From Longimicrobiales bacterium (GTDB lineage: Bacteria > Gemmatimonadota > Gemmatimonadetes > Longimicrobiales > Gaopeijiaceae), in assembly GCA_965249725.1 (NCBI GenBank), contig CBDFMQ010000002.1:2560001-2624000 (forward strand): a stretch of 64,000 nucleotides of DNA. Reading direction: 5' to 3'. Shown here piece by piece: positions 7,971 to 49,063 of this stretch (its first letter is position 1; the number at the start of each line of letters is the position of its first letter). The notes beneath the pieces are model-generated. The model was not told the origin of the DNA. It worked only from the letters and a program-made list of their open reading frames with translations, and made no database searches. The position numbers were made by a program, and so were the translations under genes.

Positions 7971-9524
7971 CTACGGCTGGCCCACCACCCGGGCAGGAGC
8001 CCCCCGGTCCCCGGTGTTACCGGTGCCGATCTGCCCGAACTCGTTGGCGCCCCAGCAGAACGCGACGCCGTCCGTGTCGACTCCGCACGTGTGGAACCAA
8101 CTGGCGCTCACCGAAGCGAAGACATGCGGACCGAAGACCAGCGTGGGCAGGCTCACCTGGCCCGACGAGGTCCCCAACTGCTGGTCGGTGTTCTTGCCCC
8201 AGCAGTGGGCGTCCCCGTCCGTGTCGACGCCGCACGTGTAGAATGCTCCCCCGCTGATACTAGCGAAGACGATGCCTCCGATGACCGGAAGAGGCTCATC
8301 CTGTCCCCCCAAGGTGCCTCGACCGAGCTGGCCGTTGTTGTTCCCACCCCAGCAGTACGCCTCTCCACCGGCGGTGACGCCGCAACTATGATCACCGCCC
8401 ACGCCCAGAGAGACGAATTCCGGCACACCGGGCACGAGCCGAGGGTCGCGTGTCGTACTCCCCGATCCGAGCTGGCCCTGCGCGCCGCGGCCCCAACAGT
8501 AGGCCGTTCCCGCGCTAGTGAGCCCACAGGTGTGCTGGCCCGCCTCGGAGACCTCGACGGCCACGAACGTGAGCCCGCCGCCCACGGGGAGAGGGACGGC
8601 ACTGCAGGAAATCGAGATCCGGGGTGTGAAGAGGGTCTCACAAATATCGACGGTGGCAGCGGTACCGAGCGCCTCGTTCTCGTTGCTGCCCCAACAGTAG
8701 GCCGCCCCCGCCGTCGAGATTCCGCACGTGTGTTCACCGCCGGCATCCACCTGAGTGAAGGTCAGCCCTCCTGCAACGGCCATGGGAGTCACTACGGCTA
8801 GCGTATCCCCAGTGCCGAGCCGGCCATCGTGGTTCACCCCCCAACAGTACGCCTGTCCCCCGGCGTCCAGGCCGCAGGTGTGGGCGTTTCCGACGCTCAG
8901 GGAGGCAAACGTGATCCCTCCGAGCACGGCCGCCGGGGTAGTGCTACAGTCGACGTCGCCGTCGAAACAGTCGCCCGTGGTCGGCCCGACCCCGAGCAGG
9001 TCCTCCCCGTTGATGCCCCAACAGAAGGCCGTGCCATCGGCGGCCAGGCCACATGTCCGGAAGGTGCCGGGATCCACGAAAGCGAGGTCCAGAGCCTGGA
9101 CCGTAACCTCGGCCGAACCGCTCCTCTCTTCGAACGACGCGGTGATGGTGGCGGTCCCCGCCCCAACCCCGAGCACACCGACCGCACCCGGGTCCCCAGG
9201 CCCGACCGTGGCCACCAGGGGGTTCGACGACGTCCATACGAAGTCGGCCTCAGACAGCGCGTTTCCGTCCGAGTCCGCCCCACTCGCAGTCAAGGACACC
9301 GACTCCCCGAGCCATAGGGTCTCGCTGGCGGGCGTGACGCTGATGACGCCCGAAGCCGGACCGGTCGGGGAATCCGCTGTACCGCCACACGCCGAAGAGA
9401 CCAGAAGCCCCAGAGCGATGACGAGGTGGAACGTGCGACCGCCGGGACGCTCGCGCGCTGGGCTATATGACATGCAGGGCCTCATGTTGCTTGGACAACG
9501 GGCGAGTGTGGTGGACTGGACCAT
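7971..9524 (-). CDS. RCC1-repeat beta-propeller lipoprotein with Ig-like (Big_2) domain
   Basis: Seven HTCG...G.AYCWG.N..GQLG repeats; VWTSSNPLVATV...GTATITAS Ig motif; SSAC lipobox; true start probably 9473-9485. Confidence 0.9.
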   Translation of the reverse strand: MVQSTTLARCPSNMRPCMSYSPARERPGGRTFHLVIALGLLVSSACGGTADSPTGPASGVISVTPASETLWLGESVSLTASGADSDGNALSEADFVWTSSNPLVATVGPGDPGAVGVLGVGAGTATITASFEERSGSAEVTVQALDLAFVDPGTFRTCGLAADGTAFCWGINGEDLLGVGPTTGDCFDGDVDCSTTPAAVLGGITFASLSVGNAHTCGLDAGGQAYCWGVNHDGRLGTGDTLAVVTPMAVAGGLTFTQVDAGGEHTCGISTAGAAYCWGSNENEALGTAATVDICETLFTPRISISCSAVPLPVGGGLTFVAVEVSEAGQHTCGLTSAGTAYCWGRGAQGQLGSGSTTRDPRLVPGVPEFVSLGVGGDHSCGVTAGGEAYCWGGNNNGQLGRGTLGGQDEPLPVIGGIVFASISGGAFYTCGVDTDGDAHCWGKNTDQQLGTSSGQVSLPTLVFGPHVFASVSASWFHTCGVDTDGVAFCWGANEFGQIGTGNTGDRGAPARVVGQP

Positions 9525-33375: not shown

Positions 33376-34518
33376 CTACCGGCCCAGCCAGACACCGGTG
33401 GACGGGACGAACGTGGCCCACGCGTACCAGAACGCCACGTACGAGTTGGCGACCTGGACGAGTTGCTGCCCCTCCAGCCCACCCGAGGTCGCACGTCCGT
33501 CGAGCGTCCACTCGCTTCCGGTCTGAACGTCGACGTACCGTCCTTCTGAGAGCTCGAAGTCGAGAGCCTGGCCTGCGAGCGCGGATTCGAAGGCCACCGC
33601 GGCTTTTGAGTCGCGGTCCCAGAAGACGACGATCTCCCGACCTTCAGCCCGGGAGTGGACCACGTCCCGGTTCCCCTCCGAGTCGAGTGCGTTGAAGGGG
33701 AACGCCACGCCGCCGCCATCCGCAAATGGTATCCCCAGGACTCGCTCCTTGGGCGGGCGTCGGCCATCGAGATCGCCCTGCGGGAACAGCGTCTCGGCGT
33801 TGGTCAGGCTCTCGTAGTCCCCATACGGATATTCCTGGTAGTTGCGGTTGAGGCCGCTGTCGATCGCGATGACCTTCGTATCCGGATGGAGCGACAGCCA
33901 GGCGTCCCATCGCATCTCGACGGCTGGCACCATGTCCAGCATCTGCCCGTCGCGAGGCCCACACCGCGCGCCGCGCATCATCTGAGGCCAGAGCGACCGC
34001 TCCGCATCAGGCTCGTAGGGGTTGCCGTCGGGGTCCGACCTTTCCGTGCGGTCGTACAGGATCAGATTGTTCTGGAGAAGCAGCCCCGACACCCCGAACT
34101 CGGCTCCGTCCGCTGCGGTACGGTCGAAGACCATGCTCGATCCCGTGAGGGGGCAGTAGGTCACCGCGATCGGAATCGAGAAATCACTGAAGTTCACGAT
34201 TTCGTGCCACCACAAGATGTTGTGGGGAATCGCGAGGTAGATTCCGTCGATCGCGATGCCGATTACCCGATCCCACGTACGGACGTAGGTCGCTGCGGGG
34301 TGATCGCCGCTCACCAGATCGGGGTCGGACAAGGCCGCAATCCCGTCGATGGGGACGCCGCCCGACACAATCTGGCCTTCCGGGATGCTACACGTGCCGT
34401 CTTCTTCGCGCTCGAGCTTCGGGAAGGCCTCGGCCACGGGGGACTCGCCACACGCCAGCGTCATCACTACCACGGCGAGGACTTCGGCTCCCAACGTGGT
34501 CCTCAGGCGTTGTCGCAT
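33376..34518 (-). CDS. DUF3179 family lipoprotein
   Basis: DGIAALSDP, WHEIVN, TYCPLTGS, FGVSGLL, NLILYDR, FWYAW; TLAC lipobox. Confidence 0.9.
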   Translation of the reverse strand: MRQRLRTTLGAEVLAVVVMTLACGESPVAEAFPKLEREEDGTCSIPEGQIVSGGVPIDGIAALSDPDLVSGDHPAATYVRTWDRVIGIAIDGIYLAIPHNILWWHEIVNFSDFSIPIAVTYCPLTGSSMVFDRTAADGAEFGVSGLLLQNNLILYDRTERSDPDGNPYEPDAERSLWPQMMRGARCGPRDGQMLDMVPAVEMRWDAWLSLHPDTKVIAIDSGLNRNYQEYPYGDYESLTNAETLFPQGDLDGRRPPKERVLGIPFADGGGVAFPFNALDSEGNRDVVHSRAEGREIVVFWDRDSKAAVAFESALAGQALDFELSEGRYVDVQTGSEWTLDGRATSGGLEGQQLVQVANSYVAFWYAWATFVPSTGVWLGR

Positions 34519-34595
34519 TCCCCACCGTCCCGTCGTGCTCGGTCCTTCCGTTGGCCATCACGCTGAGCAACTCGTCGGGGGGGTGTGAGAGTTCC

Positions 34596-34715
34596 CGCAT
34601 CGCTCACAAACTCAACGACAGACCTCGTAAACGACTCGGCTTCTTCACCCCTAAGGAGTGTTATGAAGAAAAACTATGAGCCCCTTGCATGTTGCACTTC
34701 AAAGTTGAACTCAAG
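34596..34715 (+). mobile_element. IS30-family right-end remnant
   Basis: Encodes IAHKLNDRPRKRLGFFTPKECYEEKL* followed by terminal TGTTGCACTTCAAAGTTGAACTCAAG; closely similar to 41166-41285. Confidence 0.85.
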
Positions 34716-34738
34716 AAGCCCAGAAGCACCTGTCTGGC

Positions 34739-35254
34739 CTAGGGTGAGGTCGCACCCTTCCATTTCTTGGCGAGTCGCACCCAGCGGACAGCCATCGACC
34801 GTGAGTAGGTCATCTGTTCCCCAGGATAGATTTCAGCTAACTCCGCGGACTCGTGCTCGGAGGCCCACGCAGTCAGCGGTATCATCGCCTCCGACAACGA
34901 GACCTTGCCCCACGTCACCTCGTGGAGCTGGCGGGATATGAGGCCGGTGGGGGACAAAGTGAAGACCGAGCGGAATGCGAGGCGCCCAACTCCGACTAGG
35001 TCGAGGAAGTCGTTACCCTCCGAGCCCTGAATCGTGACCGTACGGAGCGATTCCTCGACAAGTTGCCACTCCAATCGGCCGTTCGCGCCCACATCCCACT
35101 CTAGCGCGGTCGCCGCCTGACCCTTCGCCAAAGTGAATCCGGCTCCGGCGAACTCCAGTTCGAACTCCGGCGCGAGGCACGCCAAGGCCTCTTGAAGGGA
35201 GTGATCGCCTAGGTGCCCGAGGTATGCGCCAACGATCTCCGCCCCGTCACCCAT
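34739..35254 (-). CDS. Cassette gene: SnoaL/NTF2-like hypothetical protein
   Basis: ATG follows GTTAGAA core site and GGAGG RBS; YLGHL...ALACLAPEF pattern. Confidence 0.65.
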   Translation of the reverse strand: MGDGAEIVGAYLGHLGDHSLQEALACLAPEFELEFAGAGFTLAKGQAATALEWDVGANGRLEWQLVEESLRTVTIQGSEGNDFLDLVGVGRLAFRSVFTLSPTGLISRQLHEVTWGKVSLSEAMIPLTAWASEHESAELAEIYPGEQMTYSRSMAVRWVRLAKKWKGATSP

Positions 35255-35279
35255 CCTCTTCCTCCCCGTCTGCTGGGCT

Positions 35280-35448
35280 TTCTAACGGATTGCGATTCAC
35301 CTCACTGCGTTCGGTGGTCTCGGCGTAGAGCAAACCGATCTTCGAAATCAGTACGGCGCCTCGGCTCTGCTACGCAGCTAAGATGGTGACCGCAAGCGAA
35401 GCGCGCGAGCGGGATGCCTACCGCGACAGTAGCAATCGCTTGTTAGAT
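35280..35448 (-). repeat. attC-like recombination site 1 (complete, 169 bp)
   Basis: Minus strand ATCTAAC-AAGCG-ATTGCTAC ... GGTGAAT-CGCAATCC-GTTAGAA; imperfect long palindrome. Confidence 0.85.
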
Positions 35449-35737
35449 GTTGCTGCCGAATAGGTGGGGAGATTCGGCTTCCGGTAGCTGGCTGAAGCGA
35501 GGACCCAATGTGCCGCCGCTGAACGCCGCGCCGAAGCCGCCTAGGCCCATCAAAGATCGCCAGGAGACTCAGGCTCCACAATGCGACCCGGGCCAACGCC
35601 TGATCGGGAGCCCGAGTCGGGCCGCCCCCTTGCGGGTCGGCGTGCCCACATGCTCACTTGAGTGTTGGCGGGCACAGCTTCTCAAGGAGTGAGGCTGGGG
35701 TCGCAGTGCTGCCGCCCCTTTCCAGGAGGCCGAAGAC

Positions 35738-36463
35738 ATGCGCTTCATGAGAGTCGTATCCGCCGGTGCCTTTGCCTTGGTGCTCGGCTGTTCCGGGACC
35801 GATACACCGATCGAATACCTGGACGCCGTGACTGCCGATCCGAACCACTACTCGGTCGAGTTCGAGAACGACGCCGCGCGCCTCATCCGCATCACCTACG
35901 GGCCAGGCGAGTCTTCGGTCATGCATCGGCACCCGCCGAACTGCGCGATCTTCCTTCACGATCAGCCGGCGACGATGGAGTCCCCGGACGGCGAGGTGAC
36001 GGAGGCGCAGGCGACCGACGCGGGGACGGTGAATTGCACCGAAGGCGAGGTCCACCTGCCGACCAACGCCGGTGATGGTGAGCTTGAACTCATTCTCGTC
36101 GAATTCGAAGACGCTGGGATGGCCGCTTCCGACGAGATGCCGGATGCGCCCCACGCGGTCACGGCCGACCCCGATCACTATTCGGTCGAGTTCGAGAACG
36201 AAGCAGTGCGGGTCGTCCGGGTCCGCTACGGCGCTGGCGAAACGTCGATCATGCACCACCATCCCGCGTATTGCGCGGTCATCATCCAAGAACAGCCGGT
36301 CACGTTCGAGCTTCCCGACGGCTCCGTGGAGGATGCGCCGGAAGGCGAGCTCGGAACGTTGAACTGCGTCGACGCCGGAATGCACTCGCCGACGAACAAT
36401 GGCCAGGGCGAGCTCGATGCCATTCTCATCGAATTCAAGGGGCGCGCCACGCGGGCTGGCTGA
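35738..36463 (+). CDS. Cassette gene: tandem two-domain cupin lipoprotein
   Basis: LVLGC lipobox; duplicated AVTADP.HYSVEFEN...YG.GE.S.MH.HP...H.PTN. Confidence 0.85.
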   Translation: MRFMRVVSAGAFALVLGCSGTDTPIEYLDAVTADPNHYSVEFENDAARLIRITYGPGESSVMHRHPPNCAIFLHDQPATMESPDGEVTEAQATDAGTVNCTEGEVHLPTNAGDGELELILVEFEDAGMAASDEMPDAPHAVTADPDHYSVEFENEAVRVVRVRYGAGETSIMHHHPAYCAVIIQEQPVTFELPDGSVEDAPEGELGTLNCVDAGMHSPTNNGQGELDAILIEFKGRATRAG

Positions 36464-36566
36464 GAGTTCGCCGAGCGATCCGCGGACGGGACGCGACGCC
36501 TCGGTGGACCGCGCTCGGTGCGAGAGTGTCTCGTGCTCGACAGCGCCCACCGGACGCGCTGGCGAC

Positions 36567-36654
36567 ATCTAACGGATTGCGATTCACCTCACTGCGTTCG
36601 GTGGTCTCGGCGTAGAGCAAACCGATCTTCGAAATCAGTACGGCGCCTCGGCTC
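36567..36654 (-). repeat. attC-like site 2, conserved half (split by IS3)
   Basis: 36569-36654 is identical to 35282-35367. Confidence 0.85.
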
Positions 36655-36693
36655 GGAGCCTGTCAACGCCAGTGAGACACTCTTGGGAATTAA

Positions 36694-37701
36694 TTAGAGA
36701 GCAATCTCCTGTGTCGTGAGGGAGGGGGTTGGAGGATTGATCCAGACGGCCTCCGGGAGCGGTTTGGGCTTCGGCTCACCGGAGACGAAGCGGTCGGGAT
36801 GAGCGGCCCAGGCCTCGCGTAGCACGGCCTGCCTGCCGGCGATGACCTGATCTGCATTCCCGAAGTGGACCTGTTCGGGGGTCAGCATCGAGATACCACC
36901 ATGGCGGTGCTCGGCGTTGTACCAGCGGAAGAACGAGCGACAGAAGGTTTTGGCCTGGCCCTGATCCTCGAACCGTCCAGGAAACGAGGGATGGTACTTC
37001 AAGGTCTTGAACTGGGCTTCGGAGAACGGATTGTCATCCGACACCTGAGGTCGGCTCAGCGAGCGGGTCACCCCGAGATCGGCGAGGAGCTGAGCCGTGC
37101 ATTGGCTCGTCATCGGAGCTCCTCGATCCGAGTGCAAGGTCAGGACCTGGGGCTGGACGCCATGCTTCAGGCAACTCTGCTGGATCAGGCGCCCGGCCAA
37201 GGCCGAGCTCTCCCGATCCGCCACCATCCATCCCACGATGTAGCGGCTGAAGATGTCCATGATAACGTAGAGGTAGAAGTAGCTCCACTTCCTCGGCCCC
37301 AGCAGCCGTGTGATATCCCAGGACCAGACCTGGCCCGGGCCCGTCGCCATCAACTCGGGTTTCTGGTATTCGGGATGACTCCGCTGCGCTCGGCGCTCTC
37401 GAACTGGCACTTGGGAGGCCAGAACGCGATACATCGTACGTTCGCTGCACAGGTAGACGTCTTCGTCGAGCAGGGTCGCCACAACCTCGGCCGGGGACCG
37501 GTCCACGAATCGCTCCGAACACAGCGTGTCGAAGACCTTGTCTCGTTCCTTCTCGCTCAAGGCACGGGCTGGGGTCGGGCGGGGCTGCTGATGCCCGGTC
37601 GATGGCCTCCGACGACGATAGAACGTGGCTCGGGCGACCCTGAGCGCATCGCACGCGGGCTTTACCCCTACGTACGTGGCCAGCGCCTCGGCCGCCTTCA
37701 C
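36694..37701 (-). CDS. IS3 transposase OrfB (DDE/rve)
   Basis: WSWDIT, LHSDRG, DDNPFSEAQFKTLKY, YNAEHRH; GTG start overlaps orfA TGA. Confidence 0.92.
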   Translation of the reverse strand: MKAAEALATYVGVKPACDALRVARATFYRRRRPSTGHQQPRPTPARALSEKERDKVFDTLCSERFVDRSPAEVVATLLDEDVYLCSERTMYRVLASQVPVRERRAQRSHPEYQKPELMATGPGQVWSWDITRLLGPRKWSYFYLYVIMDIFSRYIVGWMVADRESSALAGRLIQQSCLKHGVQPQVLTLHSDRGAPMTSQCTAQLLADLGVTRSLSRPQVSDDNPFSEAQFKTLKYHPSFPGRFEDQGQAKTFCRSFFRWYNAEHRHGGISMLTPEQVHFGNADQVIAGRQAVLREAWAAHPDRFVSGEPKPKPLPEAVWINPPTPSLTTQEIAL

Positions 37702-38150
37702 GAGTTCGTCCCGTCCTTGAGGCTCAATCCCAGCAGCCCTGCAACTTTTCCCTGGACGTCGAGGATCAGGCGCGCCTTCTCGAGTTCCTTCTCCAGGCGA
37801 GTGTTCTCGCGCTCCAGCTTGCGCACTTTCCCCTCCAGCGGATTCCGTTCGCTCGGCTTTCGACCTCGTCTCTTCGACAGCGCTCTCAGCGACCCACTCC
37901 GCACCGCCTTGCGCCATGTCGTCAGGTGCGACGAGTACAAGCCCTCCCGTCGCAGGAGTCGCCCTACCTCTCCCGGCTCCGTGCACCGGTCCGCTTCTTC
38001 GACGACCCGCAGCTTGTACGACGGACTAAACCGTCGGCGCGTCGGCTTATCTACCACCTCCGCGTCCGGAGCAGCTGCCGCGCTTCGCTTACCCTCCCAG
38101 GTTAGTGGGGCGATTCCATTCTCTTCCATTCTCTCTCGGTGTCTCAGCAT
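37698..38150 (-). CDS. IS3 transposase OrfA (HTH + leucine zipper)
   Basis: RRRFSPSYKLRVV...LRREGLYSSHLTTWR...LERENTRLEKEL. Confidence 0.9.
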   Translation of the reverse strand: MLRHRERMEENGIAPLTWEGKRSAAAAPDAEVVDKPTRRRFSPSYKLRVVEEADRCTEPGEVGRLLRREGLYSSHLTTWRKAVRSGSLRALSKRRGRKPSERNPLEGKVRKLERENTRLEKELEKARLILDVQGKVAGLLGLSLKDGTNS

Positions 38151-38222
38151 CCTCGGTTTCTCTGCCTTCGCCCTACTCTAATTCTTTACTCGTTCCGTGT
38201 CTCACCTAAGTTGGCAGAGAGG

Positions 38223-38308
38223 GGCTCTGCTGCGCGACCAAGATGCCGACCGCAAGCGAAGCGGGCGAGCCAGATGCTCGTCGCGACTGCAGCAATCGCT
38301 TGTTAGAC
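38223..38308 (-). repeat. attC-like site 2, variable half
   Basis: Aligns with 35363-35448 (GACCGCAAGCGAAGCG...AGCAATCGCTTGTTAG). Confidence 0.85.
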
Positions 38309-38425
38309 CGAAACGATGCCACCATCTGAATGACCTGCAGAGTCGACGCCCCTGCGTCCGCCTACTAACAGCATATGCGGTTGTGTTCGAATCAGTGCTG
38401 AGGCGAAAGCGTGGATCCCTCCGAG

Positions 38426-40735
38426 CTAACCCCCGGGCCGCCCCTGGTAACGGTCGAGCCAGCCCAGGGTCTCGCGGATCAGCACGTCGCGCGGGACGAA
38501 GTGACTCCCGAGCGTGACCACCCAATTCTTGTCCTGCTCTGGGGTGCCGACGAGCTCGAAATACCGTCGCGACCGTTTCGATAGGGCGTCGAACTCGCCG
38601 GTCAGCAATAGGAGCGGTACCTCGACCCTGGGAAGCGCGTTGATCGGATCGATCTCGGGTGTCGTGCCCAGGTCTATGAGGGGGCCCACGGAGATGATCG
38701 CGGAACGGAGGCGGGGCTCCTGCGCCAGGGCCGTGGGGCCATTCAAGCCTCCCCAGCTGTAGCCGTGGTACGCGACGGATCGGTTATCGATGTCGCGACG
38801 CGTCTCGAGGTAGTCCAGCGTGCGGCGTAGATCCTTGACGCCCGCGATCGTGTTGTCCCGGTACGCCGTCGTGTTGAGGTCGGGCATTCCCGTGCCGTCG
38901 CCCCGCTCGAAGCTCCCGAGATAGACGGGAAAGGCAACGGCCCGTCCGCTCTTGAGGAGGAAGTCGGCCTTCTTTGCGAAGTATTCGTCCACGGATTCGA
39001 GAACGAACGTGTCCCAGCCCGGCCAATACACGACTGTTCGGAACGGAGGCGACCCGATCGTAGGCAGATACAGGTAGAGCACCATTGGCTCGCCGTCGTA
39101 GCCGGGATCGAAGGTGACCCGCTCCCGGGTCCAACTCCGCGAGTGCACCGGCTCGTCCGAGACGACGTTGAGCGGCCCCCGGTCGTAGTCGAAATGCCCT
39201 CCCCACGCGGCGTATACCTGGTCCGACACCGGCTCTCGCATGATCGCCGGGGACGCGTCTTGGGCCTCGCTGACAGGAGCGCGTACGCGCGACGCCACCT
39301 CTGACTCCTCGTCGGTCATGGCGAGCCGGAAGCCGTTTCCCGGGGCCCGGTCCAGCGGAGGGGCCGCGGGGCTAACCTCTCCGACGATGTAGTACGGATC
39401 GTTCCAGCTGCCGCCGAGGACGACATACTGATCGCCGAGCTGTGTGGCCGTCCATTCCCGCACGTTACCGGCCATGTCGAAGGCGCCCGTGTAGCTCATG
39501 GCGCGGCTATCCAGGACGGACCGGGCCCCGGCACCGTCGAAATTGCTGGCGGGCAGGAGCCACGGGAGCGTCGCTATGGCGAGGCCGCGCCGCCAATGAT
39601 GCGCGGTCGGGAGCTCCTCGCCGACGAATCGGGCGTATGCGGCCGCCTCGTACCAGCTGACGCCGGAGACGGGGAAGTCGTCCTCGCCCACCGCATAGTC
39701 CCCGGCCTCCCACGTGCTGGGGCCAGGCTGAAGGGTGCGATCCGTGAACAGAGTTCGCTCCTCGTCCCACGGAACGGTGTCCCCATCGACGACGACCGGA
39801 TCCCACAGGGACGACCGCTGATAGCCGCCCGCATCGACGAATTCCTTGAACTTCGCGTTCGTGACCTCGTACCGGTCGAGAAAGTAGTCCCGAAGAAGGA
39901 GGGACTCGCCCTCGAGGTTCAGGCGCCAGCCGGCGACGCGGACCTTCCCATCGGACAGCGTCTCCTCCGTATCGAGCGCGAACGTCTCCGGACCCACCAG
40001 CAGCCCGAGTCCACGGTTCGCTGATTGCGTCGCCAGCGTCCCCCAGTTGACGTGCCCGCCCCCGACGGTGCGGTTCAACGGACGGTAGCCGTCGAGTTCG
40101 AGACGGAGGCGGGATAGGCCGTAGGGGAAGTGGATGTCCTCGAGCGGTGTCCTACCCAGGACCACCCACTCGTCTTCCGGACGATCGAAGGGTTGGTATG
40201 AGACGATCGCTCCAGCCGGATCGGATCCGATCGTCGTTCGCCACGCCAGACGAGGCCATAGCTCCCCGAGCTCGGGCGCTTCCGGAAGCCGAGCCTCCGC
40301 CTCCCTTGTGAGCGCGTACGCTCCGTGCCAATCCGCCACCGCCAGACGCGCATCGATGTCCGGCAGCGCGACGCGCTCCAGCCACTCTCGATCCGGGTCC
40401 CGCACGAGGAACGAATAGGAGGCCGCGCCGAGCAGCGCGGCCACGAGGGCGGTCGCCGCGTAGCTCACGAATCGAGGTGCGGCGGGCGCGGGCCCCTCCG
40501 AGACCGTGGGCCGTTCGCGCGCGATCCCCTCCGGGGTGAGCTCGTAGGCCCAGGCGAGGAAGACGGCCAAAAAGAACCCGAGCCCGAGCAGCACGATGAC
40601 CAGGCTGTCCGTCCACGCCGGGAGGTTGAGCGGCTCCTCGACCGTCGTGATGACCTCTAGCAGCCCCCAGGCGACGACCGCATACGCGACCGCGACCCGG
40701 ACGACCTTCCGCCGCCTCAATTCGCGCCAAATCAA
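38426..40735 (-). CDS. Membrane-anchored FGE-sulfatase (SUMF1) domain + alpha/beta-hydrolase fusion; probable cassette gene
   Basis: TTG start before ELRRRKVVRVAVAY TM motif; YEVTN, PVSGVSWYEAAAY, DMAGNVREW, GFR; GYSWGG/GEFD/GSH triad; followed by attC 2. Confidence 0.85.
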   Translation of the reverse strand: MIWRELRRRKVVRVAVAYAVVAWGLLEVITTVEEPLNLPAWTDSLVIVLLGLGFFLAVFLAWAYELTPEGIARERPTVSEGPAPAAPRFVSYAATALVAALLGAASYSFLVRDPDREWLERVALPDIDARLAVADWHGAYALTREAEARLPEAPELGELWPRLAWRTTIGSDPAGAIVSYQPFDRPEDEWVVLGRTPLEDIHFPYGLSRLRLELDGYRPLNRTVGGGHVNWGTLATQSANRGLGLLVGPETFALDTEETLSDGKVRVAGWRLNLEGESLLLRDYFLDRYEVTNAKFKEFVDAGGYQRSSLWDPVVVDGDTVPWDEERTLFTDRTLQPGPSTWEAGDYAVGEDDFPVSGVSWYEAAAYARFVGEELPTAHHWRRGLAIATLPWLLPASNFDGAGARSVLDSRAMSYTGAFDMAGNVREWTATQLGDQYVVLGGSWNDPYYIVGEVSPAAPPLDRAPGNGFRLAMTDEESEVASRVRAPVSEAQDASPAIMREPVSDQVYAAWGGHFDYDRGPLNVVSDEPVHSRSWTRERVTFDPGYDGEPMVLYLYLPTIGSPPFRTVVYWPGWDTFVLESVDEYFAKKADFLLKSGRAVAFPVYLGSFERGDGTGMPDLNTTAYRDNTIAGVKDLRRTLDYLETRRDIDNRSVAYHGYSWGGLNGPTALAQEPRLRSAIISVGPLIDLGTTPEIDPINALPRVEVPLLLLTGEFDALSKRSRRYFELVGTPEQDKNWVVTLGSHFVPRDVLIRETLGWLDRYQGRPGG

Positions 40736-40934
40736 GGTTCCAGTCTCCCAGCGTGAGAAACGCCATCCGTTCCCGGAACCGAACCTAGGCAAGATAGGCG
40801 GTCCAAGGACCGCCACAAGCGGCGCGCGTGGACAGGGAAGATGGTCGGGCCGCGTCCACCGGAATAGCCTCGGTCTTCGCCCAGCACGGTGCCCGCCCTC
40901 GAACTCTCCTGCCCGACGTGCGTTGTCTCCCTGA

Positions 40935-41285
40935 TCCGTCGCTCTCATCAAGAACGCTCACCGCACTGTCCGTACCATCACGGTCGACAACGGTACCGAG
41001 TTCCACGGCTACAAAACCATCGAGGCCGCCACCGTCTTTCGCTTCTACTTCGCTACGCCCTATCACTCCTGGGAACGCGGAACCAGCGAGAACACCAACG
41101 GGCTCATCCGTCAGTATCTACCGAAGCGCCAGAGCATGGCTCACCTCACTCAGCGCCACTGCAATCGCATCGCTCGCAAACTCAACTCCCGACCCCGCAA
41201 ACGACTCGGGTTCCTCACCCCAAAGGAGTGTTATGAAACAAAACTATGAGCCCCTTGCGTGTTGCACTTCAAACTTGATCTCAGG
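40935..41285 (+). mobile_element. IS30-family 3' remnant
   Basis: RTITVDNGTEF...YFATPYHSWERGTSENTNGLIRQYLPK...LNSRPRKRLGFLTP* followed by TGTTGCACTTCAAACTTGATCTCAGG. Confidence 0.92.
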
Positions 41286-41348
41286 CGGCTCGCGTGAGTT
41301 CGCGTCTCGGCTAGTTTAGGTTTCTGGCTCCTCTCGGGAGATAGTGCC

Positions 41349-41798
41349 ATGGCAGAAAGTCGATATCCAGTGCCCGATACTGGAATCCTCGTCACACATC
41401 TTGTCGTTGCCGAGGACGTCGCAACCACGAGCGGCTTCTATTCTCAGGTACTCGGCGGTGAGATCGTCCATGAGGGCCGAGGCTCCCCCACCTTCGTGCG
41501 GCTCGCCAACACCTGGATCATCGTGACCGAGGGGGGTTCCGGAACTCCCGACAAGCCGGATGTCGTCCTCGCCGTACCTAGCGACTTGAGTCGATTCGAC
41601 GCGTTCCTCAACATCCGCGTTGCGGACATTGAGGAAACGTATCGGGAGTGGACTGCGAGGGGCGCCGAGTTCATCACTCCACCCCTCGACAATCACGGCT
41701 ACGAGAAGCGGTGCTACGTTCGCGACCCGGACGGACGGATCATCGAGGTAGGGCAGCACACCGGAATGTTGGCAGTCTTCGGGATCGAAAGCGACTGA
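41349..41798 (+). CDS. Cassette gene: VOC/glyoxalase family protein
   Basis: HLVVAEDV...FYSQVLG, LNIRVADI, RCYVRDPDGRIIEVGQ. Confidence 0.9.
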   Translation: MAESRYPVPDTGILVTHLVVAEDVATTSGFYSQVLGGEIVHEGRGSPTFVRLANTWIIVTEGGSGTPDKPDVVLAVPSDLSRFDAFLNIRVADIEETYREWTARGAEFITPPLDNHGYEKRCYVRDPDGRIIEVGQHTGMLAVFGIESD

Positions 41799-41815
41799 GC
41801 AGATCTGGTAGAGCC

Positions 41816-41933
41816 GCCTAACGGATTGCGATTCACCTCACTGCGTTCGGTGGTCTCGGCGTAGAGCAAACCGATCTTCGAAATCAGTACGGCGCCTCGG
41901 CTCTACTGATGCACGGCTAAGATGCGTGATCGC
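41816..41933 (-). repeat. attC-like site 3 (conserved half intact, other half truncated or diverged)
   Basis: 41818-41903 is identical to the other two copies; similarity fades after CTAAGATG...GATCGC. Confidence 0.8.
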
Positions 41934-41976
41934 GGTTGACCCATTGCTTCCTGTACTCACGCAATACTGGCATGTA

Positions 41977-42474
41977 CTAGTTGCGCTCGTCGAGATCCGG
42001 CGCCACCCAGTCGACCGGTGGAGGATTTCTCTTGCAGCGGTTTATATTCACTTTAAAACCTGCGTCGCAGCCATTCATTACCATACGCCGCTCAGCAATA
42101 CGCCAATTCGAATCGACGCGCACTAATCTGTCCTGATACTGGCCAAGGATCGTTGCAGTCGATCCATCAGAACGTTCGTGCCAGGCATGAACATAGCTAT
42201 TTGCCAGGGCACCGTCATTGTCGAATTTGATTTGAACGTTGGAAAGATGGTGTGAAGTTCTCGACCATCGCCACATCCGTTCAAGGGACTTTTCGAGCGC
42301 CGCAGCGCTGTTACTCTGAAGTCGTTCGTCCGGGCCGTAGTCGACTGTACAATCACTTGTGAAAAGCGCCGACAGCAACGGCAGATCCATTCGGTCAAGC
42401 GCATAGCAATATTGGATGAGCACATCGGTTATTTCTTGCCGGGCGATTAGAGATTCAGTTGATTGGGAACTTAT
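41977..42474 (-). CDS. SnoaL-like/NTF2 family protein (SnoaL_4 type)
   Basis: ARQEITDVLIQYCYALD, TSHHLSNVQI, GQYQDRL..WRIAER; the RBS-positioned codon is ATA. Confidence 0.8.
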   Translation of the reverse strand: MSSQSTESLIARQEITDVLIQYCYALDRMDLPLLSALFTSDCTVDYGPDERLQSNSAAALEKSLERMWRWSRTSHHLSNVQIKFDNDGALANSYVHAWHERSDGSTATILGQYQDRLVRVDSNWRIAERRMVMNGCDAGFKVNINRCKRNPPPVDWVAPDLDERN

Positions 42475-42486
42475 GATCGGCCTCCT

Positions 42487-43263
42487 CTAGCGGACATAGG
42501 TCGCGCCGTTTACATCCAACGTGGCCCCGGATAAATGGCGGACGGTACCGGTGGCAAGAAATGCAATCAGATCGGCGATTTCTTCGGGCGGCACCCACTC
42601 ACCCATTGCCAAAGTACTGGTCACAATATCTTCGCCGCCCTGCAGCTCCGCGAAGTCCAGCGACATCTTGGTCCGTACGATTCCGGGTGCAATGATGTAC
42701 GTATAAATATTGTCTTTCGAGTAACCACGTGCGATTGACTGGGCTACTGCTTTAATCGCTCCTTTTGAAGCTGCATACGCGATCATGTCCGAGTTCGTAA
42801 CGCCACGTTGCGCAACCCAGCTCGACATCAGGATGATGACGCCACCGCCACGTTCTCGAAAATGTCGAACTGCCGCTCGCATCAGGCGTGCCTGCGCCTG
42901 AACATTTACCTGGAGATGGCTGGCCCACGCAGCATTCCAGTTTTCCTCGGTGTCGTCGATTCCGCCGGATGGATCGATCATCGCAGCATTGAGCACGAGC
43001 ACATCAACTCGACCGCGCCAACCGACCGCCTCCTCCCAAATACGCTCGACGGCCGCGTTGTCGTCAAAGTCTCCGCCAACGAAAAACTTGTGTTCAGTGG
43101 AAATTTTCGCGAGCGCAGCTTGCGCGCCTTCCAAATCGCCGTCCTTCCCCCGGTGATGTGCGATCAGCTCAGCACCGGAACTTCCGATGCGCTTCGCGGT
43201 TGCGGCACCAATCCCCTGCGATGCGCCGGTCAATAGAACAACTTTATCTTTCAGACTCTGCAT
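42487..43263 (-). CDS. SDR family oxidoreductase
   Basis: TGASQGIG, LNAA, YAASKG, IAPG, LDVNGA; start at MQSLKDK. Confidence 0.9.
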   Translation of the reverse strand: MQSLKDKVVLLTGASQGIGAATAKRIGSSGAELIAHHRGKDGDLEGAQAALAKISTEHKFFVGGDFDDNAAVERIWEEAVGWRGRVDVLVLNAAMIDPSGGIDDTEENWNAAWASHLQVNVQAQARLMRAAVRHFRERGGGVIILMSSWVAQRGVTNSDMIAYAASKGAIKAVAQSIARGYSKDNIYTYIIAPGIVRTKMSLDFAELQGGEDIVTSTLAMGEWVPPEEIADLIAFLATGTVRHLSGATLDVNGATYVR

Positions 43264-43284
43264 GCTTTTGACTCGGGTTGGGTG

Positions 43285-43476
43285 TAAGAGCAAATACAAA
43301 AATCGCGTTGATACCGCGTGTCGGTTGAATCTCCGGGTGAATGGAAAGCACGCGTCGCTCCGGCTCAGCGGTCGCGCCACCAACAGGCACTGCAATGTAC
43401 TGGCGGCCGTCCATTGCGTAACTTACCGGGTGAGCAGACACCGGTGCACTAACAATCGTCTCCCACAAAACTTCAC
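43285..43476 (-). pseudogene. C-terminal fragment of a PQQ-dependent dehydrogenase
   Basis: GEVLWET...PVSYAMDGRQYIAVPVGG...IFVFAL, the typical last propeller blade. Confidence 0.75.
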
Positions 43477-48565: not shown

Positions 48566-49063
48566 CTACTCGCCGGTGTCGGGCGCCTCGTCGGGCGCCT
48601 CGTCGGGCTCCTCGTCGGGCTCCTCGTCGGGCTCCTCGTCGGGCTCCTCGTCGGGCTCCTCGTCGGGCGCCTCCGACTCCAGGGTCAGCGCGGCGGAGTT
48701 GATGCAGTAGCGGAGGCCCGTGGGCTGGGGGCCGTCGGGGAAGATGTGTCCGAGATGTCCGTCACACGCCGCGCACAACACCTCGGTGCGCCGCATGCCC
48801 AAGGTGTTGTCCTCCTCGGTGCGGACGTTGTCCGAGTCCGCCGCCTCGTAGAAGCTGGGCCAACCGCACCCCGCGTCGAACTTGGTCTCGGAGTCGAACA
48901 AGCGCGTGCCGCAGCCGGCGCACACATAAGTCCCCGGGGCGGTGGTGTCCCAGTGCTCTCCCGTAAAGGCCCGCTCGGTCCCCTTCCTCCTGAGGACCTC
49001 GTACTGCTCGGGAGTCAGAGACTCACGCCATTCGGCATCGGTCTTGTTCGGCTTGTCGGACAC
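48566..49063 (-). CDS. msrB: Peptide-methionine (R)-S-oxide reductase
   Basis: [41 protein letters not shown]. Confidence 0.96.
48578..48673. repeat. 12-bp tandem repeat x8 encoding the (E[E/A]PD)8 tail of MsrB
   Basis: GTCGGGC(G/T)CCTC repeated 8 times. Confidence 0.95.

Follow-up and report, generated by a model that had tools for sequence, protein, structure and literature searches.

Relics of IS30-family insertion sequences in a decayed integron cassette array, and relatives that insert at the 3' edge of attC sites

Can a transposase of the IS30 type select attC, the recombination site of integron gene cassettes, as its target? The question is raised by a 64,000-nucleotide stretch of a Longimicrobiales bacterium genome (Gemmatimonadota; contig CBDFMQ010000002.1, positions 2,560,001 to 2,624,000 of the forward strand; hereafter the window), in which a small, decayed integron cassette array without an integrase (34.6-42 kb) contains two fragments of insertion sequences (ISs) of the IS30 family, each abutting the start of a cassette. 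The original prediction, made from the window itself, was that both IS ends are joined directly to cassette starts in the same register, that they stem from separate insertions, and that an IS30 lineage homes on attC and immobilises the cassettes. We consider it highly probable that the window is a decayed array which was once hit by two attC-homing IS30-family copies, of which the right ends survive; insertion of this IS30 lineage at the 3' edge of attC, in one orientation, in the register GTTRRR/NNN (here and below a slash marks a junction) and with a 3-bp target duplication, is supported by its full-length relatives. The features on which the argument turns are the following.

34596..34715, + strand: relic 1, an IS30-family right end comprising the last ~120 bp of the IS; right terminal repeat at 34691-34715 (25 nt).
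34716..35442, + strand: cassette 1, starting AAGCCCAG, which is position 7 of the predicted GTTAGA+AAGCCCAG; TTAGA is missing.
35280..35448, + strand: attC 1, with R'' TTCTAAC at 35280-35286, R' GTTAGAT at 35442-35448 and a 69-nt insert at 35298-35366.
35443..38302, + strand: cassette 2, with an open reading frame (ORF) at 35738-36463 of 241 amino acids (aa) that has a weak cupin match (Pfam).
36567-38308, + strand: attC 2, interrupted by an IS3-family element.
36655..38223, - strand: IS3-family IS of 1569 bp, with orfA at 37698-38150, orfB at 36694-37986 and the duplication GCTC.
~40936..41285, + strand: relic 2, an IS30-family right end running from IS position ~753 to the end; right terminal repeat at 41261-41285.
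41286..41822, + strand: cassette 4, starting CGGCTC, which is position 7 of the predicted GTTAGG+CGGCTC; R'' GCCTAAC at 41816-41822.
41816..41930, + strand: attC 3, a left half with a 69-nt insert at 41834-41902; the right half is gone past ~41930, where the array ends.

The repeats at 35280, 36567 and 41816 are integron attC sites. Three copies of a conserved repeat occur in the window, with CTAAC starting at 35282, 36569 and 41818, and two of the three have right halves ending in GCAATCGCTTGTTAGA (at 35447 and 38307). We identify them as attC because copies of the repeat family are clustered genome-wide (42 matches), because the genome carries an integron integrase gene (IntI model TIGR02249, 335 bits against a cut-off of 265, on contig 3 at 1.03 Mb, the same contig as the window and far from it), and because the attC bottom strand folds with its R and L boxes paired; R'' RYYYAAC and R' GTTRRRY form an imperfect inverted repeat, and related copies bound the cassettes. 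The start of a cassette can be predicted from its own R'', a rule that holds in this array since the uninterrupted cassette 2, our positive control, obeys it (start G/TTAGATGT, end ACATCTAAC, 9 matching bases). After its final ...GTTGCACTTCAAAGTTGAACTCAAG at 34715, relic 1 gives way to AAGCCCAG, and cassette 1 ends CTGGGCTT+TCTAAC (35273-35286), the reverse complement of which is GTTAGA+AAGCCCAG; 8 matching bases thus lie immediately past the end of the relic. In relic 2 the last bases are ...GTTGCACTTCAAACTTGATCTCAGG, up to 41285, and the next are CGGCTC; the end of cassette 4, GAGCCG+CCTAAC (41811-41822), has the reverse complement GTTAGG+CGGCTC, giving 6 matching bases, or 9 with the terminal AGG of the IS included. 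Each relic therefore adjoins a cassette whose start is short of precisely the six bases, GTTRRR, that its own R'' predicts, and the direct, same-register joints of the original prediction are confirmed from the sequence. The relics share 88% DNA identity over 118 nt and both lie on the + strand, in the orientation of the attC top strand; that their flanks differ (AAG and CGG) and that they are 12% diverged fits the separate insertions that had been proposed.

The element belongs to the IS30 family. Two full-length relatives score 278.8 and 285 bits against NF033563, and relic 2 scores 115.7 bits over profile positions 186-267 only (cut-off 80); relic 1 is too short for a profile score and is placed by its identity to relic 2. 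The full-length relatives also have HTH_38 (E = 2e-17 and 2e-15), a region deleted in both relics of the window, and an rve domain. An alignment of nine transposases (A1) shows no variation at D176, D233 and E267, the last two being separated by 33 residues. Relic 2 codes for the last 103 transposase residues, which take in two members of the DDE triad, the second D and the E (the first D is absent), and keeps DNGTEF...SENTNG with 33 residues between; relic 1 codes for the transposase C-terminus, ...IAHKLNDRPRKRLGFFTPKECYEEKL, and its stop. No IS110 model was found among the transposase NCBIfam and Pfam matches, and a scan of 34000-43000 for group II introns gave no hit at E up to 1. Of 301 genomes of the same family searched at the DNA level, 34 gave matches, the window's genome included. 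Intact elements have one transposase gene, a length of 1037-1116 bp and terminal repeats of 25 nt; full-length copies of ~1.1 kb begin CTTGG or CGCGGATTCATA...AAGTGCAAC and end GTTGCACTTCAAA(G/C)TTGA plus 7 nt. Where a 3-bp duplication is found, it brackets exactly those ends: at L053 the left flank reads GTTAGATAT/IS/TATCACG and the right end ...CTTGAACTCAAG/TAT, and the duplicated triplets are CGG at L042 and GCG at L047. The right repeat of relatives with verified 3-bp duplications ends 25 nt past GTTGCACTT, which sets the last base of both relics as the true IS terminus. A difference in register between the two junctions, once true termini were known, had been named beforehand as evidence that would count against homing, and both relics stop at the same terminal base.

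Relatives were gathered with alignment A1. The exploratory set, drawn from the family genomes and 78 genome-contig loci, comprised 74 distinct full-length copies, of which 70 had at least 40 nt of left flank and 4 were dropped; the replication set, assembled by the same criterion from 79 metagenome loci, comprised 54 distinct full-length copies, 52 of them with flank; and a Vibrio set, from one V. vulnificus record and one 2-Mb V. campbellii record, comprised 21 places and 19 distinct copies. GTT occupies positions -9 to -7 in 56/70 exploratory copies (GTTRRR in 42/70), in 43/52 replication copies (GTTRRR in 33/52) and in 15/19 distinct Vibrio copies, where it corresponds to GTT+9 of Vibrio-type attC repeats; per position, these loci have a background of 1.26% GTT and 0.15% GTTRRR. 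Positions of the attC L' type are also visible in the left-flank logo, and GTTRRRY plus two bases is intact left of the IS. In the right flank, nothing stands out beyond C at +1, G at +3 and C at +4, and there is no inverse motif; the orientation is therefore fixed. By record title, attC-flanked copies come from Gemmatimonadota, Verrucomicrobiota, Acidobacteriota, Pseudomonadota and Ca. Eisenbacteria.

Does the DNA on either side of these relatives behave as attC and as cassette? For the left flank we used an arm-duplex test, in which pairing of the terminal 30 nt, for a candidate site whose end lies 2 nt short of the IS, was compared with the 5% quantile of random positions; it took the place of an exact R'' test and a whole-site minimum free energy test, both of which we judged too strict. 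Arm pairing beats the 5% control quantile in 43/68 copies (42/56 with GTT and 1/12 without) and in 16/31 copies of the metagenome set, while the strict tests give 27/68 copies versus 3/918 random positions (exact R'') and 34/68 copies versus 13/277 (whole-site minimum free energy). Folds of the left flanks have the usual pattern of R box, spacer and L box. On the other side, the first 6 nt of the right flank, reverse-complemented and followed by YYYAAC, recur downstream in 13/59 copies, compared with 18/3414 when another copy's flank is used; the corresponding figures are 5/59 versus 4/3420 for 7 exact nt and 15/59 versus 86/3420 for 7 nt with at most one mismatch. In seven copies (L086, L087, L093, L103, L121, L124 and L132) the triplets differ between left and right and the right flank is a native cassette start; both junctions of these copies are therefore canonical and derive from different insertions. 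One Vibrio junction was looked for in its empty form in the plasmid collection, with no match, and a likeness of the IS right end to attC (identity 0.314 at the predicted offset versus ~0.24 elsewhere, the best of 25 offsets) is too weak to be claimed as mimicry. Inspection of full-length relatives' flanks had been put forward as a check on the original prediction, and it was passed: they show the GTTRRR/NNN register, the 3-bp duplication and an attC-like left flank.

Exact 3-bp duplications occur in 21/65 exploratory, 10/52 replication and 5/19 Vibrio copies, and use many different triplets (such as CAA, CGG, CCG, TGT, CAC, CCT, TAT, GCG, AAG and TTT). On array-free plasmids, all three of three distinct single-copy sites have a perfect 3-bp duplication (AGA, AGG and GCT), beside the hexamers GATAAG, ATTAAG and ATTTTT, whose likeness to GTTRRR varies. 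Other off-target copies with clean duplications lie beside ATTGGG, GTTTGG and AGGAGG, and perfect 3-bp duplications also mark the insertions outside arrays at L041, L042, L073 and L114. Because single plasmid sites and off-target copies show clean duplications, we take the 3-bp duplication to be the rule. Intact copies in DNA other than attC had likewise been named as counter-evidence to homing; such copies form a minority, 27/141 being without GTT in register, and those with clean duplications stand beside hexamers whose likeness to the motif varies. As a separate observation, even copies that are 99-100% identical in one Vibrio record have mismatched triplets.

Among named elements, ISVvu6 and ISVa6 of Vibrio come closest; they are assigned to the IS30 family by their RefSeq product names and are, by a protein search against the plasmid collection, 50-52% identical in amino acid sequence to a Gemmatimonadota copy. 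Features in common are the end architecture CTTGGATTCA...AAGTGCGAC / GTCGCACTTCAAACTTGATACTAAG, the 3-bp duplication and the length, which is 1090-1091 bp in the Vibrio elements; these differ in having another host phylum and another attC type, and the window holds only fragments of a diverged cousin. The spacing of copies indicates a segmental duplication in the smaller Vibrio record. We found no report on the target choice of ISVa6 or ISVvu6 in the literature, ISfinder entries lying outside the search; the available part of PMC4572688 merely names ISVa6 as new.

Several other processes could have produced such junctions. A single insertion at the head of one cassette, followed by spread of the IS-bearing cassette through the integron integrase, would require no aiming at attC, and the IS does lie just 3' of the G/TT crossover, which makes TTRRRNNN-IS-cassette units movable in principle; the absence of matching duplications in 100/136 copies likewise agrees with spread of this kind. 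We nevertheless regard it as very unlikely, given that the bases at -3 to -1 and the downstream cassettes vary between copies, that exact duplications involve many different triplets, that insertions outside arrays have perfect 3-bp duplications, and that the window junctions differ in both triplet and cassette. Random or weakly biased insertion, in which survival in the neutral DNA between cassettes mimics a link with attC, draws on the tolerance of cassette arrays for insertions and on the IS3-family element, which also sits in an attC in the window (and in 1/10 cases elsewhere). That element doubles as a control: it splits attC 2 one base past the 69-nt insert, and is present in more than 40 copies in each of two same-genus genomes. 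Most of the 10 copies examined have their own 3-4-bp duplications at unrelated sites, 0/10 are in the GTT register and 1/10 lies inside an attC. Survival bias, moreover, cannot yield a single-nucleotide register and one orientation in 114/141 copies against a background of 1.26%, and even off-target insertions with clean duplications have a related hexamer beside them (GATAAG, ATTAAG, GTTTGG and ATTGGG), which together leave this account extremely improbable.

The ends of the element might also have been set wrongly, with GTTRRRYNN belonging to the IS left end and no attC being targeted at all. The motif does stand directly against the left end in most copies, but we give this account practically no credence: the upstream DNA goes on to form a complete attC hairpin that has an R'' of its own; the flanking repeats are host-specific, of the Vibrio type beside Vibrio copies and of the Gemmatimonadota type beside the others; the three bases beside the IS recur on the right side as the duplication; the alignment of the left with the right terminal repeat begins at the first base past the motif; and the motif is absent in 27/141 copies. 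Targeting of attC by the transposase itself is the reading that we prefer, and several points weigh against it too. Those same 27 copies have no GTT in register, and an exact 3-bp duplication is present in only 36/136 array-rich copies. The loss of duplications in arrays would be best explained by exchange between copies, or by dimer-mediated rearrangement, a process presumed from the sequences. The copies counted are not independent, several sharing one genome or array and one Vibrio record containing the segmental duplication described above, and the counts leave out loci without paired end motifs, most of which are cut by contig ends. Host phyla rest on the titles of binned metagenome genomes, in which binning errors are possible. 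In the window, the register of the relics is read from the right junction, their left ends being missing, and the terminal AGG leaves junction 2, taken by itself, with a 3-nt ambiguity.

How would insertion at the edge of attC proceed? As in other IS30-family elements, transposition would presumably follow a copy-out/paste-in route via a circle or dimer with abutted ends. The transposase would pick the 3' border of the cassette recombination site, possibly by recognising a GTTAGG-like hexamer with the help of more of attC, and cut with a 3-nt stagger across positions 7-9, where position 1 is the G of the R' core GTTRRRY. GTTRRRNNN/ would then adjoin the left end, and the right end would lead into the duplicated NNN and what remains of the downstream cassette. 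The transposase gene reads in the direction of the attC top strand, in a fixed orientation. The integron integrase crosses over at G/TT in the attC core. A cut 3' of this crossover, outside the 7-bp core, would leave the upstream attC functional: because the IS lies 3' of G/TT and leaves GTTRRRY intact, that site should stay usable, and the IS would become the front part of the downstream cassette, with which the integron integrase could move it along. Whereas the homing claimed in the original prediction is borne out by the register in 56/70, 43/52 and 15/19 copies, the immobilisation of cassettes is not, since the crossover would be spared and GTTRRRY is left intact. Where many copies share an array, they may recombine with one another, scrambling duplications and leaving hybrids and stumps.

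Cassettes 1 and 4 in the window did lose their upstream partner site, probably because of later deletions that also removed the left part of each IS. Both relics are left-truncated, and neither their left junctions nor the expected upstream attC are visible in the window; the deletions would have taken the left ~750 bp of relic 2 and ~980 bp of relic 1, together with the upstream attC. Truncation by the integrase at secondary sites was considered and rejected, as the left break of relic 1 has no G/TT-type joint. We searched the 9.2-kb region in two same-genus genomes, where it was swamped by IS3-family copies and did not clarify the loss of the left parts. A DNA search of the window's own genome found these two relics only, and no intact IS30 transposase gene is present there, the IS30 model passing its cut-off for relic 2 alone. 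The window copies are dead relics of the attC-homing IS30 clade, and the lineage is extinct in this genome. A pattern search additionally picked up a third, lone 25-nt right repeat on contig 3 at ~2310208-2310232 (- strand; locus L166), upstream of a BlaI/MecI-like repressor gene and with no detectable attC nearby. Right-end stumps of 27-41 nt also occur in same-genus and family genomes.

The remaining components of the array are these.

34739-35254, - strand: ORF of cassette 1, 171 aa; no match in Pfam.
38303..40935, - strand: block 3, following attC 2, without an attC of its own and continuing directly into relic 2.
38426-40951, - strand: gene of block 3, 841 aa, FGE-sulfatase / peptidase S9-like (Pfam).
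41349-41798, + strand: ORF of cassette 4, 149 aa, glyoxalase/VOC family (Pfam).

No R'' matching the start of block 3 was found in the window. Beyond attC 3 (41930-43400) lie genes for a SnoaL-like protein and a short-chain dehydrogenase, on the minus strand, and the G+C content there is 52-56% versus 60-69% in the surroundings. The genome's sole integron integrase gene is at 1028977-1029906 (- strand) of contig 3, preceded by plus-strand attC sites at 1022-1027 kb; it lies at the far end of that array (1022-1030 kb) and is convergent with it, where the textbook layout is divergent. All three attC sites of the window have 69 extra nt after CTAACGGATTGCGATT, which the typical ~100-nt attC of the genome lacks. 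This insert (CACCTCACTGCG...CCTCGGCT) is present in six attC sites, always at one spot between the loop and the L'' side: at 35298-35366, 36585-36653 and 41834-41902 in the window, and near 970.5, 757.9 and 2275.2 kb of contig 3. Among 121 family genomes, the window's own included, there are 6 copies in its own genome and 1-2 per same-genus genome, and otherwise weak matches. The insert is 75-78% alike to DNA beside two tRNA-Pro genes at 1903.5 kb. An Rfam scan of 34000-43000 gave as its sole match a sub-threshold sRNA inside the IS3 element and nothing for the 69-nt insert, and ARAGORN found no tRNA in the same interval. The insert may be a second small attC-directed element or may mark an attC subtype. 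Elsewhere in the window, ~ten tandem 12-nt units (GTCGGGCKCCTC) occur at 48566-48685 and a diverged ~68-nt unit is present five times, at intervals of 144-198 nt, at 8323-9059; both repeats probably lie inside coding sequences.

The clade resembles other members of the IS30 family in passing the NF033563 cut-off, in combining HTH_38 with a DDE domain of 33-residue D-E spacing, and in having one ORF, ~25-nt repeats and a length of ~1.1 kb. IS30 of E. coli prefers a 24-bp palindromic hot spot and its own ends, and makes a 2-bp duplication; the clade described here instead uses the R' border of attC and makes a 3-bp duplication. IS1111-attC elements, of the IS110 family, are likewise insertion sequences that home on attC in one orientation, and have a DEDD-type transposase, no terminal inverted repeats and no duplication. 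Theirs is a position inside attC, unlike that of the present clade, which is of the DDE IS30 type, has terminal repeats and duplications, and sits at the outer 3' edge. Group IIC-attC introns also recognise attC and have a fixed insertion place and, according to PMC8876359, can separate cassettes from their sites and provide outward-facing promoters; they are retroelements with a ribozyme and a reverse transcriptase, whereas the ORF here is a DDE transposase. The attC-directed elements named in the available text of PMC3971601 and PMC8876359 are IS1111-type elements and group IIC introns only. PMC7923331 describes group IIB introns located in cassette arrays, and an IS200/605 element next to a CALIN. 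The accessible sections of PMC3971601, PMC8527097, PMC4572688, PMC7923331 and PMC8876359 contain no mention of IS30, and a search of the full-text literature, with subscription papers and ISfinder notes outside its reach, found no description linking the IS30 family with attC targeting.

Elements known to aim at attC are of two kinds, IS1111-attC and the group IIC-attC introns, and an IS30-type DDE transposon would be a third, acting at a different position of attC and, by record titles, in many soil and marine phyla. For the evolution of arrays, the finding bears on their rearrangement, shortening and silencing, since recombining copies would leave stumps such as those in the window; for annotation, lone 25-nt right ends at cassette starts could be mistaken for part of attC. 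Studies of target choice by IS30-type transposases would gain a natural and sharply defined target. For the broadest form of the claim we see roughly even chances: that an IS30 clade spanning phyla ('IS30-attC', including ISVa6 and ISVvu6) homes to the exact nucleotide and in one orientation on the outer 3' edge of attC and, as the front of a cassette, is shuffled and exported by the integrase. If the IS does ride inside cassettes, two mobility systems would be linked, and this DDE transposon would have in integrons both a safe harbour and a vehicle.

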